A stretch of DNA of 6,860 bases from Prasinococcaceae sp. CCMP 1430 (taxonomy: Eukaryota; Plantae; Prasinodermophyta): assembly GCA_013416795.1 (NCBI GenBank), contig RQSC01000905.1, positions 1 through 6,860 of the forward strand. Direction: 5' to 3'. The position numbers and the translations under genes are program-made. Below the pieces are notes generated by a model. The model made no database searches. It was not told where the DNA came from and saw nothing but the letters and a program-made list of their open reading frames with translations. This document shows, one piece after another, positions 1-6,860 of the stretch (position 1 is the first letter of the stretch; each line of letters starts with the position of its first letter).

Positions 1-55
1 TCTGCAACCTACTTGGTTTGTAGAGATTCTACTTCCGGTTAGTACAATCCAGAAA
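1..55. repeat. 55-nt terminal direct repeat, copy 1 (identical to 6806-6860)
   Basis: TCTGCAACCTACTTGG...GTACAATCCAGAAA is identical at both ends. 55 is a common de Bruijn k-mer size, so this is most likely an assembly circularisation overlap. Confidence 0.95.
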
Positions 56-691
56 CGGGTCAATTCTGACAAGTATTGCTCCAGATATGAGCAAGATACT
101 GTTCTACTACATTCTACTTGGATTCGGTGGTTCTTCAAGTGACGCGTGGCGTACGATGTCAAGTCACAGTGCGCGACAGGGTCTTAACCTCCGGCACTTC
201 TGTCGAGTCAGTACTATTGACTGGACGTGTATATTTCAGTGACTAGACTTGTGCGAATGTCTATTCGCAGTATGGATGTGACGTATTGATAGGACAGTAT
301 GGATAACAGACCTGGTATCTGTTGGTCCACAATTGTGGTCTGAACCAGCGTGGATGATCAGTCCTGTCAAGTGTTCAGATGGGACCGTTGCGTGAGAAGT
401 ACATAATGAACGGGGCTTTGCCACTTGGGCAACCCATTTCCCCGCACTCGAGGCTGCGTACCTTCAGCGTTGTCTCACGTGCCTTCCGTGTACTGTTTGT
501 GCTGGAATCCATAACCAGCACCGTAAAGCTATGATTTAATATAACTCAATCCTTGGCGTGATTTAAGCATTGTCAACCTGAACCACAGTTCAGGGGGTTT
601 TATTTCAACTCGAATTACAAGGGATTCGTCGTCTACGGCTGCGCAGAATTTTTGCGAGCTCTGTGAAGTTTTACGGTATTCACCATTTTTT

Positions 692-1240
692 ATGGGAAAT
701 ACGCGTGAATTTCGGGAACCATCTCCAGAACGCGCTGCGTCTACGTCAAGGTTTAATTTCAGCGAGCGTCGTACTGTGTCCGTCAATCGGCTGCACGCGG
801 CAGTTCATCGTCCAAGTCTTTCGGAAGCCCTGGTGAGCAGGCCGCCTGTGTCTAACGACCTTGCGCAATACATCGACGATCTGTCGAGCGATTTGGAAAT
901 TCTTTCTGAAAACTCGCACATCTTCGAACGTCTTCAGGCTGCGGATCAAGCTCAAGTTATCTCTGCCATTCGAGCTTACGGTCTTGGAGCGCTGGCATTG
1001 GCGACGGCGTGGGCTGGCGTGTCTTCCGAAGTCCCAGCGGTGGATCGTGCGTTGCGCGGCAACGAGTGGGCTGCGACTATCGAAGGCGTCGTGAACGCAG
1101 CATCAGCGTCTGTTGGCATCAACCATCTGGAAGAGCAGTCGACTGAATTTTCCGACTTGCCTGGTTTGATCCCCGACATTGTTGGCGCAGTTATCAACAA
1201 CGTTATTCGTCGTGCGCCAGCAAACCGTAATCTGGATTAA
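692..1240 (+). CDS. Orphan 182-aa ORF upstream of gag (accessory protein of unknown function)
   Basis: Longest ORF outside gag/pol, on the same strand, ATG to TAA. Predicted helical core, a hydrophobic segment (VISAIRAYGLGALALATAWAGVS) and an amphipathic C-terminal helix (LPGLIPDIVGAVINNVIRR). No family recognised. Confidence 0.6.
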   Translation: MGNTREFREPSPERAASTSRFNFSERRTVSVNRLHAAVHRPSLSEALVSRPPVSNDLAQYIDDLSSDLEILSENSHIFERLQAADQAQVISAIRAYGLGALALATAWAGVSSEVPAVDRALRGNEWAATIEGVVNAASASVGINHLEEQSTEFSDLPGLIPDIVGAVINNVIRRAPANRNLD

Positions 1241-1386
1241 TTCGTCGCGGGTTTGTTTAAAGGTTTTCTTCTGTGAAGCTGGAGTGAAATTTTCTGCATC
1301 GGCATCGAGTTAAGGGTCGTCATCGAGCATCAAGTTTAAGCTGTGAAGCAGCGTCATCAGCGACATCGGCATCGTCGGCAGCGACA

Positions 1387-2475
1387 ATGAGCGGCAGCAG
1401 CGGCATTATTCCGCCCCTTCCTCCCAATTCTCCTCCCCCTCTTCCTATTCCTCTTCCTCCTGCAGCGGCTCCTGTCAGGATGCCTAGGGCACAGGATGGG
1501 TTCGCCATCCTCAATCAGCTGCCCAGCCTGAAGGACCACTGGACAGTGAAGGATAAGGAGCAAGCTATGCGACATTTGCGTGGCTTTAGGGCATTGTACG
1601 AGGGTGCTAATCCTCATCAAGTGCTGACCATGTCAACTTATCTTCTGAAGAGCCCCAAGAGGGTGCAGAAGTTTGTTGTAGCCAGCTTTGATAGGGGTGA
1701 TAGCTGGGATGCCTTCATGGCAGCATTCGACCAGTTCCTCGACGACAAGAGGGCCAGCGATGGGTCTTATTGGAAGAATGAATACGCGGCATTTAAGCCT
1801 GAGGGGTTAGTGCTGCAGGCCTTCGAAGAGTTCCAGGAGCTCAGGGCTAATTGTGCAGCAAAGGGGTATGTCCTGGCTGATGAAATTGCCATGGATGATT
1901 TCCTGGCAAGCCTCAAGCTGGATGAGGCAGCCATGGATAACCTGCAGGTGCACATGCGTAGTGTGACCACTTGGGCTGCAATGGAAGCCAAGGTCAAGGA
2001 TTATTTCAGGGGCAAGTTTGTGGGAGGGAAGAAGGTGGCAGACAAGGAAAGGCAGAAGCAGAGGGAGCTTGACAAGGGTGACAAGGGCAAGGATGTGGAT
2101 GACAACACTGCTGGGGGGTCTGTGCCCAAGGTCAAGGGCAACCAAGGTGGGCCTTCCCACCGTGGCTCTGCGCCAAGGCCTGGCCCGCCCAGGCAGGGGA
2201 ACTTCAGTGGCAACAAGCGTGGCAGGTGGGCTAACAGCTACAACAACAACCAGCAGCCTCCTGCACAGCGCCAGAGGTTTGATTTCAACAGGGTGGGTGC
2301 CAACCAGGGAGGTGGGCCCATTCCAGCTCAGCGGGGTACGGTGATGCAACAACCACCTACCAATCCAGTTATCAGGTGCTTTAATTGCCAGAGGCTGGGG
2401 CACATCCGTGCCAACTGTCCTGCACTGCGTGGGCAGGGACAGGGGAACAGGGGTGGCCCTTCTAGGCCAACCTGA
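1387..2475 (+). CDS. gag: Gag (capsid-like helical region plus nucleocapsid zinc knuckle)
   Basis: CX2CX4HX4C knuckle CFNCQRLGHIRANC (2377-2418), Pro-rich N-terminus, G/R/N/Q-rich basic region before the knuckle, and position directly upstream of pol. Alternative start ATG at 1480. Confidence 0.9.
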   Translation: MSGSSGIIPPLPPNSPPPLPIPLPPAAAPVRMPRAQDGFAILNQLPSLKDHWTVKDKEQAMRHLRGFRALYEGANPHQVLTMSTYLLKSPKRVQKFVVASFDRGDSWDAFMAAFDQFLDDKRASDGSYWKNEYAAFKPEGLVLQAFEEFQELRANCAAKGYVLADEIAMDDFLASLKLDEAAMDNLQVHMRSVTTWAAMEAKVKDYFRGKFVGGKKVADKERQKQRELDKGDKGKDVDDNTAGGSVPKVKGNQGGPSHRGSAPRPGPPRQGNFSGNKRGRWANSYNNNQQPPAQRQRFDFNRVGANQGGGPIPAQRGTVMQQPPTNPVIRCFNCQRLGHIRANCPALRGQGQGNRGGPSRPT

Positions 2476-2558
2476 CGTATTATGTACTCCCAGGCCTGGC
2501 CAGGGCTTAGGGAGGGGAGTCCCCCCATTCTTGAGCACAATGGGGAAGCTAGGTGGCC
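2473..2558 (+). promoter_or_regulatory. Candidate UGA readthrough signal: UGA-C followed by GC-rich stem-loops
   Basis: gag TGA (2473-2475) CGT ATT ATG is in frame with pol. Hairpin CTCCC-AGGCCT/GGGCTT-A-GGGAG (2487-2514) and hairpin CCCCATT/AATGGGG (2523-2545) follow. Confidence 0.55.
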
Positions 2559-5500
2559 TTCCACGGTCACTCAGGTGAAAGCAGTCATCACTAGGCAACG
2601 TCATTCCCACCTGGCTCATGGAGGTGATCCATTGGAGCGTGGAAGTCCTCATCTCTCAGAGGTGCAGGAAGCTCCATTTATGGAGGAGGGTGTTGAGGCA
2701 ACCCTTAATGATGCAATGGTTAATCTGTCTGTTTATAATAAAGAATCAGTATTGTCCTACATTGCAATGAGGTTGCATTTAATGTTTGGACATGCAGCCC
2801 AGGCACTCCAATTTGCACGGAGGCTGGGTGGGATTGCTTTATTTAATGCAGTGCACAAGGTTGCTGAGTCTTGTTCTTGTAGGTTGGTGGCAGCCAAGCC
2901 TAAGAAGTCTCATGCTAGAGAACCTGTGTTGCAGCCTGGGTATGTACAGTGTGACATCCAGGAGATCAGGGGCCTATTATTGTTCGTTGGTGTTGACAGA
3001 TACACCAAGTACAAGGTTCTTGAGATTTTGCAGGATAAGACCAAGCCATGTTTGGTGGCAGGGCTCCAGGCAATCAGATCCAGAATGAAACCAGTGATCC
3101 AGATCCAGTGTGACTTAGAGTTTGAGTGCTGCATAGGTCATGCTGACCTTCCAGAGTTATTTGTTGTACACAGAGAGTCACATGGCAGGCAGGGCCTGGT
3201 GGAGAGAACAATCAGAGAGATCAAGACAATCATGCTCCTGGAGAAGGGGATTCCCAGGCAGCAGCCAGCTATTGTGAAGACAGCCTGGCTGAGGTCAGTT
3301 GAAGACAGGTTGAATATTAGGGCTCCCATGTTTGTTGGTGAGACGCCTGTTACACCATTGTCATTGCATCTAAGGGAGCTCCCTGTTGAGGTTGAGCAAG
3401 CCTGGAAGGATAGTCTTATGTTCAAGTTTGCCAAGTTGAGGCGCAAGGACAAAGGCTGGAGTGTTCTGAAACCTGACGTTGGCCAACATGTGATTGTGTG
3501 GAAGGAACCTAAGCTTGCTGGAAAGCGAGGTAGCTGGCATCCTGGAGTAGTGACCAGGGTGGAGTCAGCAGGGCACAAATGCTGGGTGAGGATGGATGGC
3601 CCTCTCCAGTCAGTGCATCGTCTGTCGTGGTCATATGTACGTCCAGGGGTTGTTGAGAAGGAGGCAGCTTCCCCGGTGTTGACAGCTTTGCCAGCTGGTC
3701 GTGACGTCATCCCTGATCACCCCACTACTGTGAGTGACCCCCTAGACAGTTCTGGCCAGACTAGTCCTGGGGTAGTCAGCTCTGCAGATATTCAGGACAA
3801 GACAGACAGGATTCCCCCCAGTTCTTTCACTAAACGTGGGGGTGTGAACCTGAGAGATGTGGTGCTGGCCATGCAAAAAGCCAAGCAAGGCCCTCGGGTG
3901 TCCAAGCTCAGCCAGTTGGAGGAGTCCGAGGAGGCTGTCCTAGAAGTAGATACCAATGCAGAGGTCTCCATCATGGGGTCTCAGCATACAGGGCTTCGGC
4001 AGATCTTTAGGTCTAGTTGCCCCTGGGTGTCTGACTTTAGTGGCAGAACACACATGATGGTGTTGGGAGAAACAGTGGTCCCTTTTATGGGTGAGGATGT
4101 CACTTTTTTGGTGCTTGAAGACTATAATGGCCCAGTCATTTTGGGTCAGAATTTTCTCAATTCACCGGGTATAACTGTGACAGCCACTGAGCTACAGAAG
4201 CATCATTGGGGATATATTCCTTTGGTTAACTTCAAAGCCTTCCTTCCCAGTGTATTTGGAACAGGCAGGACAATAAAAGCGGTCAAGGATGTGCAGTGGC
4301 CTGAGGATCAGATTCCTGTGGCATCCAGTTTGGTTCTGCCAGCAGCTCTACACCCCAGTAGCATTGGTATTACCAAGAAGTCACTGGCTGCACATTCCCC
4401 TCTCACTTATGACCAGCTAGTCCAAGAGATGAGTTCTCCTCTGTTATTTGAGGCCTGGAGGCTAGCATTTGCCAAGGCTCTCGAGGAGTGGTTACAATTT
4501 GATTGCTGTAAACCAATTGACAAGGTTCCAGATTCCAGTTCAAGGCTCAAGCTTCGCTTCGTCATCAAGAGAAAGGAGGTAGATGGAGTGTCCATCCCTC
4601 ATGTGCGACCAGTTCTTAATGAGTACCGTGGTACAGGAGATCTTTTGGGAGAAGAATTGTACACACCTGGGATGCTGCATGACACATGGCGTATTTTGCT
4701 GTGCTTGTATGTAGGCATGCTCAACAAAGGTGATGATGTTTCCTCAGTTTTGCTGGATTTCAAGAGAGCATTTCTGAAGGGTGATCCCAGTGTAGCTAAG
4801 AAAGTGTGGCATTCTGAGACTCCATTCTATGTTCCAGTGCCTGTGGCATGGAAGAATGAGCTCCAATCCAACTTCTTGCTGATTCTTAAGGGTCTTGAAG
4901 GTCTCAGGTCCAGTCCCATCATTTGGAGGCTCACCTTGGAAGACTTCTTGACTAAACACTGTGGACTTCAGGTGTCATCAGTAGACCCATGTTTATTGCT
5001 GGGTAGATGGCAGACCTTACCTGTGTATGCTAGTCTGCATGGTGATGACTTGCACTTGCTTGCACCCACTGAGTGGCTGAAGCAATATGTGCCCATCATT
5101 AATGATGCATTTCCTTTGGGAAAAGAATTGTGGCAGAAGCCTGGTGAGGCAGTCACATTCTGTGGAATGCAGGCTACATTGATTGTGAATCATCAGAGAG
5201 AGTGGCTGATTAAGCTGCAGGCAGGCAATGACTACAAGAGTTCCATTCTTCAATCTGTTCCAGAGGTGCTGACGTCATCCATTGCTCCTGAGCTGAAAGG
5301 CAAGTTGGCCTGGTATGGCAGTATTTGTGGACCTGATATGATGGTTCATAGCAGAATTCCTGATGATGTTCTTATTCTTGAGAAGCCTTCTCAGATTATT
5401 GAACATGTGGACAAGTCTCCTGGCATTATGTTGGCTGGGATTGATTTTGCTTTGCCATTTTCCTTGGATATCTATGTTGATAGTTCCATGGACAGCAGGC

Positions 5501-5940
5501 AAGTGTCCAAGGTCAGAGGCAGATCAGCTGGCTTGTTTGTGCTGCAGCAACGTAAGGCCAGTCTTGTGGCCTGGTACAGTCGTCTTCAGAGGAGAGTTGC
5601 TGTGAGCTCAGATGTTTCTGAGTGCAGGGCCATTTGTGAAGGGATTCAATCCAGTTTGTATATCAAGGAGCTGTTGCTAGCTATGGCTTCAGTGACTCCT
5701 TATACCCTGCAACTGGACACATTGATTCTTTCAGACAATATGGGTATGGTCCAGTTTGTTCACAAGCAGTTGGCCAGAAGCAGAGATCTTGATTACCTCC
5801 TGTTGAAGGAGTTGTGTGGGCTTGTTGATGTTAAACATGTCCCTGGTTCTGAAAATCCTGCTGATGCTTTAACCAAGTTACCTCACAAGGCTCCAGAACA
5901 ATACAAGCTCTTGTATAAACTGATGAACCCAACTGTGTGA
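2482..5940 (+). CDS. pol: Pol polyprotein, domain order integrase - aspartic protease - reverse transcriptase - RNase H
   Basis: 1152-aa uninterrupted ORF with HHCC/DDE, DTNA...ILGQNFL, DFKRAFL...HGDD and copia-type RNase H motifs. In frame with gag, so it may be expressed as a Gag-Pol readthrough product. Confidence 0.92.
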   Translation: MYSQAWPGLREGSPPILEHNGEARWPSTVTQVKAVITRQRHSHLAHGGDPLERGSPHLSEVQEAPFMEEGVEATLNDAMVNLSVYNKESVLSYIAMRLHLMFGHAAQALQFARRLGGIALFNAVHKVAESCSCRLVAAKPKKSHAREPVLQPGYVQCDIQEIRGLLLFVGVDRYTKYKVLEILQDKTKPCLVAGLQAIRSRMKPVIQIQCDLEFECCIGHADLPELFVVHRESHGRQGLVERTIREIKTIMLLEKGIPRQQPAIVKTAWLRSVEDRLNIRAPMFVGETPVTPLSLHLRELPVEVEQAWKDSLMFKFAKLRRKDKGWSVLKPDVGQHVIVWKEPKLAGKRGSWHPGVVTRVESAGHKCWVRMDGPLQSVHRLSWSYVRPGVVEKEAASPVLTALPAGRDVIPDHPTTVSDPLDSSGQTSPGVVSSADIQDKTDRIPPSSFTKRGGVNLRDVVLAMQKAKQGPRVSKLSQLEESEEAVLEVDTNAEVSIMGSQHTGLRQIFRSSCPWVSDFSGRTHMMVLGETVVPFMGEDVTFLVLEDYNGPVILGQNFLNSPGITVTATELQKHHWGYIPLVNFKAFLPSVFGTGRTIKAVKDVQWPEDQIPVASSLVLPAALHPSSIGITKKSLAAHSPLTYDQLVQEMSSPLLFEAWRLAFAKALEEWLQFDCCKPIDKVPDSSSRLKLRFVIKRKEVDGVSIPHVRPVLNEYRGTGDLLGEELYTPGMLHDTWRILLCLYVGMLNKGDDVSSVLLDFKRAFLKGDPSVAKKVWHSETPFYVPVPVAWKNELQSNFLLILKGLEGLRSSPIIWRLTLEDFLTKHCGLQVSSVDPCLLLGRWQTLPVYASLHGDDLHLLAPTEWLKQYVPIINDAFPLGKELWQKPGEAVTFCGMQATLIVNHQREWLIKLQAGNDYKSSILQSVPEVLTSSIAPELKGKLAWYGSICGPDMMVHSRIPDDVLILEKPSQIIEHVDKSPGIMLAGIDFALPFSLDIYVDSSMDSRQVSKVRGRSAGLFVLQQRKASLVAWYSRLQRRVAVSSDVSECRAICEGIQSSLYIKELLLAMASVTPYTLQLDTLILSDNMGMVQFVHKQLARSRDLDYLLLKELCGLVDVKHVPGSENPADALTKLPHKAPEQYKLLYKLMNPTV
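2776..3650 (+). other. Integrase domain (Zn-binding HHCC-like, DDE core, SH3-like C-terminal module)
   Basis: H(2776)-X4-H(2791)-X26-C(2872)-X-C(2878). Core motifs VQCD (D at 2953), VDRYTKY, IQCDLEF (D at 3112) and QGLVERTIREIK (E at 3202). C-terminal VGQHVIVWK...K...SWHPGVV. Confidence 0.85.
3930..4220 (+). other. Retropepsin-like aspartic protease domain (variant DTNA active-site motif)
   Basis: VLEVDTNAEVSIMG (D at 3949), flap-like VSDFSGRT, then VTFLVL...PVILGQNFL (4138-4158), the hydrophobic-hydrophobic-G-x-D/N-F-L motif of retropepsins at the expected spacing. Confidence 0.75.
4450..5330 (+). other. Ty1/copia-type reverse transcriptase domain
   Basis: WRLAFAKALEEW (cf. WxxAMxxE), LRFVIKRK (KWVFKxK), LDFKRAFLKG (D at 4756; cf. 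MDVKTAFLNG), LKGLEGLRSSPIIW (LKKSLYGLKQAPRxW), SSVDPCLL, LHGDDL (5038-5049; YVDD equivalent) and FCGMQ (FLGI). Confidence 0.9.
5465..5890 (+). other. Ty1/copia-type RNase H domain
   Basis: IYVDSS (D at 5479), VAWYSRLQRRVAVSSDVSECRAI (E at 5620; cf. ISWxSKKQxxVAxSSTEAEY), ILSDN (D at 5734) and VKHVPGSENPADALTK (D at 5863). All four acidic residues are present. Confidence 0.92.
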
Positions 5941-6068
5941 GTTGAGGTGTCCAGGATGAGCTGTATTGCTTGTGAGAAGGGCTAAACATTGAGCTGGGAG
6001 CTCTGTTATGCTATGGTCCAGTCTGAGAGCAGTAATGCTCTGTGTATATATGTGTACATACTGTATTT

Positions 6069-6177
6069 TATGTGATGCTCAGTCATAGGGGCATGTGATT
6101 GAGGGTTGTATCCTCGAGGAGGTTTGTCTCAATCACGGGATTTTAAGGGGTGGGGTTCGATTCCCTGGGGCTGCATA
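6069..6177 (+). ncRNA. tRNA-like structure (not a canonical tRNA gene)
   Basis: D-arm-like GCTC-AGTCATAG-GGGC (6077-6092), anticodon-like stem TGTGA/TCACG (6094-6098/6133-6137), and T-arm TGGGG-TTCGATT-CCCTG (6151-6167) containing a consensus B-box GGTTCGATTCC. The acceptor stem is imperfect. Confidence 0.45.
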
Positions 6178-6545
6178 CTGTACACATATGCATTATATGT
6201 GTATGGGCGGACTTTCCTAGACTGGCTGACCCATCTAATCAACCTTGGTTATGGTGGCGACAGGTCTCCCTAATTTTATCCCATGCAAGGATGTGAGTTT
6301 GTAATGTGCTTAATATTTTGTGATGTGAAAATATCTCAGGTTTGGTGGGCGCCTATTAAGTTAGCAGTGTCTACCTGAAAAGGTGAGTGGGTCGCTTGTG
6401 GGGTTCCAACCTGAATTTATTCTGGTTAGCCACAAGGGGCTGCAATGCTGCAACACTCTACTTTCTGCAAGTGGATCTTTTTCTACAAGTGGATAGGGGA
6501 TTCATTGTAATTCGTCATTCCTGAGACGTGTTGTGCTTTGATACA

Positions 6546-6649
6546 TTGATATCCCTAGCAGAGCCTTCAGTGTGCTGTCAAGGAAATCAAGTATCTGGTG
6601 ATTTGATAATCCCTAGCAGAGCCTTCAGTGTGCTGTCAAGGAGAATCAA
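6546..6649 (+). repeat. Tandem duplicated hairpin module, 34-nt identical core, 58-nt period
   Basis: ATCCCTAGCAGAGCCTTCAGTGTGCTGTCAAGGA at 6551-6584 and 6609-6642, each enclosed by TTGAT...ATCAA. Confidence 0.9.
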
Positions 6650-6682
6650 TTGCCATGTATGTTGTTTGCTCTATATGTGTTC

Positions 6683-6780
6683 AGCTTAATACTCCAAGGA
6701 AAAGAAAATGCTGGAGTTATTAAGGCTTGAGGCTGGATGCCTGACTCAGCTCCAAAGAAAAGAAAAATGGGCTGGAGTTA
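6683..6780 (+). repeat. Twin hairpins with purine-only loop tracts (possible PPTs)
   Basis: CTCCA-AGGAAAAGAAAA-TGCTGGAGTTA (6692-6719) and CTCCA-AAGAAAAGAAAAA-TGGGCTGGAGTTA (6750-6780). Confidence 0.75.
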
Positions 6781-6805
6781 ATATTGCTGGACAAGCAATA
6801 TTTGA

Positions 6806-6860
6806 TCTGCAACCTACTTGGTTTGTAGAGATTCTACTTCCGGTTAGTACAATCCAGAAA
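6806..6860. repeat. 55-nt terminal direct repeat, copy 2
   Basis: Exact copy of 1-55. Confidence 0.95.

Follow-up and report, generated by a model that had tools for sequence, protein, structure and literature searches.

A 6,860-nucleotide (nt) stretch of DNA deposited under Prasinococcaceae sp. CCMP 1430 (contig RQSC01000905.1 of assembly GCA_013416795.1, positions 1 to 6,860 of the forward strand; hereafter the window) is read here as the collapsed, circularised assembly of an intact long terminal repeat (LTR) retrotransposon, both LTRs of which have merged into a single copy. Its layout runs from the LTR through a CpG-rich ORF0 and gag to a TGA in frame, followed by a pol of 1154 codons in which the integrase (IN) and protease (PR) precede the reverse transcriptase (RT) and RNase H (RH). 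The element and its relatives apparently constitute an undescribed, intact LTR lineage with a new domain order, whose RT and RH belong with copia while its protease and integrase tail bear markers of another kind. Tentatively, and at just under even weight, we take the family for a deep side branch of the copia line, one in which the protease stayed of old type and a non-copia integrase was either gained or moved to the front of pol.

Domain order and affinities of Pol

The order of the Pol domains is the textbook divider between copia and gypsy elements, and annotation tools depend on it. The initial annotation, made from the window alone, had remarked on an odd domain order, here confirmed as IN-PR-RT-RH, and its motifs are correctly placed: HLMFGH (2776–2793), VDRYTKY (2992–3012), GLVERT (3193–3210), VGQHVIV..K...W (3478–3546), VILGQNFL (4135–4158), and ENPADALTK (5851–5877) all lie in the open frame 2476–5940. 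An alignment-based fold model of Pol residues 90–605 (mean pLDDT 73; a single-sequence model reached only pLDDT 31.5 and was dropped) recovers the zinc finger, core, and tail of an integrase, matching those of prototype foamy virus (PFV; rmsd 6.8, 285 aligned) and Ty3 (Z 16.1, rmsd 6.5, 294 aligned). Farther along the chain, residues 396–502 of the model match the protease domain of Ddi1 (rmsd 3.0, 93 aligned) and the protease of equine infectious anemia virus (EIAV). The same order recurs in four further records, namely P0002 (ENA, 60% identity), P0026 (Logan, 61%), and two Mesostigma viride models, P0064 (31%), in which Gag and Pol form one chain, and P0056 (29%), which covers the IN core to RT. 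Because the predicted fold and these four records agree, we regard the order itself, architecture alone, as nearly certain. By inspection, neither the window nor P0064 shows a D[ST]G motif in the stretch from gag to IN. At the sequence level, neither Pol nor the profile had a significant match in the PDB, and the fold libraries gave no copia integrase or protease, leaving the structural comparison no power to rank copia against gypsy. The RT thumb and connection region (5158–5470) is apparently far shorter than in typical copia.

Sequence comparisons relied on references for copia, gypsy, caulimoviruses, retroviruses, and insertion sequence (IS) elements, obtained by scanning public contigs for motifs, trimmed to domains, thinned at ~60% similarity, and limited in number per tree; the repetitive record P0048 was left out, and the gypsy-like cau_L003 was dropped or regrouped in some of the tests. 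Many prokaryotic genome assemblies (L200–L310) turned out to hold eukaryotic gypsy retrotransposon contigs, that is, contamination. On the copia profile all nine family RT rows score 17.5–44.2 bits, against below zero or nothing on the gypsy profile, and all eight RH rows score 20.9–42.8 bits, against −0.2 to 9.8. The family groups with copia in the RT tree (support 100/100) and in the RH tree (100/98), and approximately unbiased (AU) tests reject a gypsy placement for both domains (RT p 0.0023 and 0.017; RH p 0.0003 and 0.010). The affinity of RT and RH for copia is thereby confirmed statistically. In the RH tree, moreover, the six copia references form a separate branch that excludes the family (86/96). 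The initial annotation had called both domains copia-like throughout, a description that trees and AU tests uphold but that overstates the individual matches: the window RT meets RVT_2 at E 7e-4, under the cut-off, its RH has no Pfam match, and the catalytic motif reads HGDD.

The protease carries a different set of markers. As the initial annotation had recognised, its end is of the ILG rather than the copia type: ILG occurs in 8/8 family rows and LLS in none, while DT[NQ] replaces D[ST]G in all eight. Among the references, LLS is found in 8/8 copia and ILG in 10/10 gypsy proteases; these motif patterns, like those for the integrase tail below, were composed after the rows had been inspected. 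In the unconstrained PR tree, gypsy and caulimoviruses join the family (96/88), albeit under a long-branch warning. A grouping of the family with copia nevertheless stands in AU tests (p 0.17; 0.45 and 0.51 in three-way tests, which used quick tree searches and a simple model), and the similarity between family and gypsy proteases (27%) equals that of the copia–gypsy control (27%). Protease rows score at most 2.5 bits on the copia profile. Look-alike clusters in the Atlas, at scores of 0.89–0.91, are RVP, RVP_2, and gag-asp_proteas, which we treat as a lead only. The retention of DTN or DTQ among members about 30% identical suggests selection, and asparagine can presumably substitute for the active-site glycine in the DTN protease.

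By its sequence motifs the integrase is a mosaic, with a copia-like finger and a non-copia tail. The H-x4-H spacing of the zinc finger, which the initial annotation missed, is present in 5/5 family rows, whereas motif-found gypsy integrases have x6 or x7 at this place in 20/20. At the other end, the tail was correctly judged non-copia and GPY/F-like: VG..V occurs in 8/9 tails, W.GP in 3/9, and FG[CS] in 0/9, against 20/24 copia tails with FG[CS] and 0/24 with VG..V or GP. The literal GP is limited to those three tails and is degenerate in the window. A profile of the tail scores 50% for gypsy and 0.1% for copia in hhalign (rank test p 3e-6), and tails reach at most 1.3 bits on the copia profile. 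GLVERT, which had been offered as a further gypsy-type sign, is not diagnostic, since G..ER is found at that place in both reference sets. Between finger and tail, the catalytic core scores somewhat higher against motif-found copia (median 4.1, n = 38) than against motif-found gypsy (1.4, n = 82), as in an earlier set (3.4 vs 1.45). Its scores against both reference sets span only −0.6 to 3.8 bits, where the two sets, scored against one another, have medians of 31 and 36 bits. The spacing between the second aspartate and the glutamate is 29 in 5/6 family members and 31 in the sixth, compared with 35 in 16/16 gypsy and 21/26 copia integrases. Trees built from IN with the family joined to copia are not rejected (AU p 0.26, 0.19), nor are they in three-way tests of IN and PR (0.14–0.57) or with PR and IN pooled (0.32). 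Capture from a Ginger- or Polinton-like source had also been entertained; among the fold matches are MELD virus (E 3e-10) and mavirus (E 1e-7), ranked under foamy virus and To virus, and an Atlas cluster headed by Preplasmiviricota stands at rank 23. A motif scan for Polinton integrases, as references for an IN tree, gave 0 matches.

Origin of the mixed domain set

In separate trees of IN, PR, RT, and RH, the four domains do not fall into one well-supported copia clade. The discordance among domain markers is real; the swap between superfamilies that the initial annotation proposed is not demonstrated by it. What stands of that proposal are the discordant markers and the position of IN and PR on the gypsy side of their unconstrained trees, and what does not is the exclusion of copia, since no AU test of IN or PR rejects the family together with copia.

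A deep offshoot of the copia line is slightly likelier than a gypsy–copia chimera because the integrase is a mosaic, because in the RH tree the copia references branch apart from the family, and because both ILG and the GPY/F module may be ancestral. One comparative survey assigns LLS to copia proteases and finds that ILG predominates in all the rest; it lists the GPY/F module for gypsy, Bel/Pao, and retroviruses, copia lacking it (PMC2774666). Since both are shared with Bel/Pao and retroviruses, they could be old states that crown copia lost. Several observations weigh against a deep copia offshoot. The RT tree leaves a position sister to copia unseparated from one inside it, copia being monophyletic in 36% of bootstrap trees, and the RT stem of the family measures 2.9 changes per site, which is very long. 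The copia reference set, 6–26 sequences per domain, was selected with a single motif, and no algal, diatom, or GalEa lineage was identified in it. Of the 19 matches from an IN profile search of 1.84 billion representatives, 13 are fragments of family members and one is a repetitive protein; the other five are integrases from outside the family (E 5e-5 to 7e-4), four with Integrase_H2C2, three with a gypsy-type RNase H upstream, and none with copia markers. One gypsy-type match shares the H-x4-H finger, and unconstrained IN trees nest the family among the gypsy-type matches (92/91; 85). To these may be added that RNA folding 3′ of the TGA is not above that of shuffled sequences (z 0.9, −0.5, −0.4).

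A true chimera, in which a gypsy-like PR and IN were joined to a copia RT-RNase H by a recombination that left the integrase in front, is a serious contender, though improbable on balance. It accounts directly for the uniform ILG end of the protease, the gypsy-side PR tree, the gypsy-like tail profile with its occasional W.GP, and the best outside integrase matches, one of which gives a 243-column alignment (26%) that extends from the zinc finger into the tail; the protease look-alikes point the same way. Those gypsy matches, however, were chosen by their likeness to the query, and once they are removed the signal is gone, the best IN tree shifting among gypsy, retroviruses, and IS elements. 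The preference of the IN core for copia and the protease similarity no greater than that of the control likewise run counter to a chimera, as does the survival of the family-plus-copia grouping in every test of IN and PR. A chimera also requires a swap plus a relocation of the integrase.

It is unlikely that the family is no more than an ordinary copia that evolved very fast, exchanged its PR and IN blocks, and let its diagnostic motifs drift toward gypsy-like forms. One block move would suffice to turn PR-IN-RT-RH into IN-PR-RT-RH, the long stems (2.9 for RT, 1.5 for IN) and the eroded HGDD, DTN, and DD(29)E bespeak rapid change, and both the copia-like finger spacing and the unrejected grouping with copia are as expected. 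Yet RT and RH have retained their copia signal (17–44 and 21–43 bits) where PR and the IN tail have none, and the alternative motifs are present in most or all members, so that two independent convergences would be required. That the window is misassembled, or that two nested elements fused by chance into a dead product, is a reading to which a collapsed circle spanned by no one contig might lend itself; it is largely refuted and very improbable, given an unbroken 1154-codon frame, a 4993-nt contig from gag to the 3′ untranslated region (UTR), and the same order in four records from three sources at 29–61% identity.

Structure, expression, and host of the element

The terminal 55 bases of the window are identical to the first 55, giving an assembly circle of 6805 bases, and the joint from 6805 to 1 is crossed by contigs of three public sequencing runs (X1, X2, and X4). 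Around this joint lies an LTR-like repeat of ~640 nt in total. In related sequences from other runs, homology ends before 6776 (X4) and after 600, 610, 611, and 621, mostly after 611, and the X1 record that carries the repeat has a depth of 16.9 against 11–12.5 in the interior, where a two-copy repeat predicts 16.0–17.6. From the circular joint, the homology break points, and the doubled depth it follows that two LTRs have probably collapsed into one. No complete two-LTR copy is present among the run contigs, and support for direct terminal repeats is to that extent indirect. The repeat break points read AGTT...AACT(C), although TG at 6768 or 6773 with CA at 606–607 is also possible; the contigs have no unique flanks, and no target site duplication is visible. 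The 4993-nt contig mentioned above comes from X1; the whole window is in no single contig. Runs X4 and X8, the latter conceivably an RNA data set, have zero cover at 688–1374, which is uninformative taken alone. A much deeper relative (depth 70–235) in runs X4–X8 carries the LTR-like repeat with other sequence on both flanks and is possibly a non-autonomous partner. Scans for transfer RNA (tRNA) genes and Rfam families found none, and searches of viral and metagenome contigs with a two-sequence alignment as query gave no locus of a relative. The features are collected in Table 1.

Table 1. Features of the element, in window coordinates.
Feature	Position	Strand	Basis
LTR-like repeat, left part (AGTTAATA...); alternative start TG at 6768 or 6773	6776..6805	+	X4 loose end, sequence
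LTR-like repeat, main part, collapsed single copy; right end ± few bases (...TATTTCAACTC)	1..611	+	Joint, loose ends, depth
Primer-binding-site position; exact 10-nt complement of 6505–6514	611..620	+	Sequence
ORF0, 182 amino acids (aa) from ATG, frame open from 545, CpG-rich	692..1240	+	Open reading frame (ORF) list
gag, 362 aa, one CX2CX4HX4C knuckle at 2377–2418	1387..2475	+	zf-CCHC E 4.5e-5
In-frame TGA separating gag from pol, context ACC TGA CGT ATT ATG	2473..2475	+	Sequence, other runs
pol, 1154 codons, one open frame, IN-PR-RT-RH	2476..5940	+	ORF, fold model
Integrase zinc finger, H-x4-H-x26-C-x-C	2776..2880	+	Motif; model residues 1–303 align with PFV integrase
Integrase catalytic core, D160 (2953), D213 (3112), E243 (3202), DD(29)E	2929..3380	+	rve E 0.16; PFV Foldseek E 1e-12, Z 16.4
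Integrase C-terminal SH3/Tudor-type barrel, degenerate GPY/F-like motif	3454..3657	+	Agenet E 1.2e-4; Tudor/PWWP Z 8.0–8.7
Retropepsin-fold protease, D492 in DTN (3949), ILG at 4138–4146	3928..4248	+	Ddi1 Z 8.3, EIAV protease Z 7.5
Copia-type reverse transcriptase, HGDD at 5038–5049	4441..5400	+	Profiles, trees
Copia-type RNase H, D1002, E1049, D1087, D1130	5455..5880	+	Profiles, trees
3′ UTR partner of 611–620; possible 5′–3′ cyclisation site	6505..6514	+	Complementarity
Candidate polypurine tract directly before LTR; second copy at 6696–6708 from 58-nt duplication	6754..6767	+	Function suggested by position
Assembly overlap, 55 nt identical to 1–55, non-biological	6806..6860	+	Sequence self-comparison

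How Pol is made from an interrupted frame is open to two explanations. The TGA recurs in an X2 record (record 11, 2209–3725, 0 differences) and in an X1 record with 12 substitutions, all elsewhere (record 6). Because folding gives no signal beyond shuffles and an ATG lies seven bases downstream, readthrough of the TGA and reinitiation could each, judging from the sequence, supply Pol. Tca2 of Candida albicans likewise has gag and pol in the same frame with a UGA between them, according to PMC2194720; the likeness is confined to the junction, where the window lacks significant RNA structure. Coupling of gag and pol may vary among family members, judging by P0064 (M. viride Mv25688), the gene model of which joins a Gag with two knuckle-like motifs in frame to IN. 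In the proposed life cycle, Gag is predicted to package the RNA, and Pol would arise from occasional bypass of the TGA or from a restart at the ATG. The centrally placed protease would then free its two neighbours, the integrase and RT-RH, whereupon RT-RH would synthesise DNA from the purine tract and from a minus-strand primer not of evident tRNA type, with insertion of the DNA copy left to the DD(29)E integrase.

No TGG of the kind found at tRNA-type primer sites occurs anywhere in 561–692, and folding reveals nothing significant in RNA structure at the primer site. The exact complementarity of 611–620 to 6505–6514 is of a kind that 0.4% of starts on the circle reach by chance; it is reminiscent of the CYC5/CYC3 cyclisation described for Ty1 (PMC7969010). 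The 3′ UTR (6551–6791) contains duplications spaced 58–61 nt, including the doubled purine tract, with TG after each copy. ORF0 and the leader (545–1400) form a CpG-rich island in an otherwise CpG-poor element, the observed/expected (o/e) ratio being 1.42 over 612–1400, 0.29 in gag, and 0.07–0.17 in the pol domains; the island may be an unmethylated or recently acquired segment. The low gag-pol ratios are consistent with methylation in M. viride, which is reported to be mainly at CG. ORF0 matched no family in the searches, and the single variant listed in it (922) falls at a third codon position.

Among named sequences, relatives of the element occur as M. viride gene models and as fragments in four protein sets from dinoflagellates, and the RH region of the window is 89% identical to the best M. 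viride model over 257 aa. In the pseudogene table of the genome paper on that alga (PMC6947507), 58 rows are homologous to six family gene models, and among 29 of these rows many lie within large scaffolds, megabases from the ends. M. viride thus carries the family in integrated form and in multiple copies, and the green alga Mesostigma, or a close relative of it, is the likely host of the window's element. That the Mesostigma assembly is itself contaminated, as suggested by 17/21 gene ids falling within Mv25378–26444, is rejected in view of the copies inside large scaffolds. The dinoflagellate fragments (EukProt P0017–P0024 and P0028–P0038) share 90% clusters with M. viride models, some being near-identical, and are likely cross-contamination of public assemblies; a dinoflagellate host is for this reason judged less likely.

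Relation to known elements and significance

In general plan the family conforms to LTR retrotransposons of the Ortervirales type, with a CCHC gag followed by a pol that holds PR, RT, RH, and a DDE integrase. It resembles Ty1/copia (Pseudoviridae) in the grouping of RT and RH, in having IN ahead of RT, in its CCHC gag, and in the H-x4-H spacing. It differs in that IN comes before PR, the protease has ILG and DTN in place of LLS and DSG, FG[CS]...GY of copia is missing from the IN tail, the catalytic spacing is DD(29)E, and no tRNA-type primer site is seen. With Ty3/gypsy (Metaviridae), and especially the non-chromovirus integrases P0049, P0052, P0053, and P0055, it has in common the ILG protease, a GPY/F-like tail, and the best IN matches, whereas RT and RH reject gypsy, IN is not C-terminal, and the spacings differ (H..C 26–27 vs 29; D-E 29 vs 35). 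Neither ILG nor the GPY/F module is exclusive to gypsy. A precedent for a domain order that conflicts with the descent of part of the domains is the Gmr1 clade of Ty3/gypsy, which also places IN before RT, albeit as PR-IN-RT-RH with a gypsy RT rather than IN-PR-RT-RH with a copia RT, and the five integrase positions listed in the same survey include none between gag and protease (PMC2774666). Troyka/Kuafuorterviruses and Odin are, like this family, deep LTR lineages overlooked or misfiled until recently; in the papers describing them they are animal elements with IN last, neither Troyka nor Odin lies on the copia branch, and Troyka has CG...CG ends and no GPY/F (PMC12440569, PMC11673190, PMC9040795). 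The literature covered, which lies outside Repbase, subscription journals, and the Troyka/Kuafu supplements and includes the available text on GingerRoot (PMC6839031) and clan AA (PMC2642776), holds no report of the IN-PR-RT-RH order or of the family.

Taken as a whole, we lean a little toward regarding the family as an undescribed lineage of superfamily level in the earliest-branching streptophyte alga. Such a lineage would combine a copia RT-RH with a PR and a GPY/F-type IN of separate ancestry, a third independent placement of the integrase (here between Gag and protease), DTN/DTQ and DD(29)E active sites, and possibly ends other than TG/CA and a non-tRNA primer. A living, multi-copy IN-PR-RT-RH family bears on how copia and gypsy split, whether through one moved integrase or several captures, and on what the ancestral protease and integrase looked like. 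It also provides natural, assayable exceptions to two active sites that hardly vary elsewhere, D[ST]G and DD35E. Finally, family members score below Pfam cut-offs and are annotated in M. viride as host genes or pseudogenes, so that similar lineages may hide in other algal genomes.

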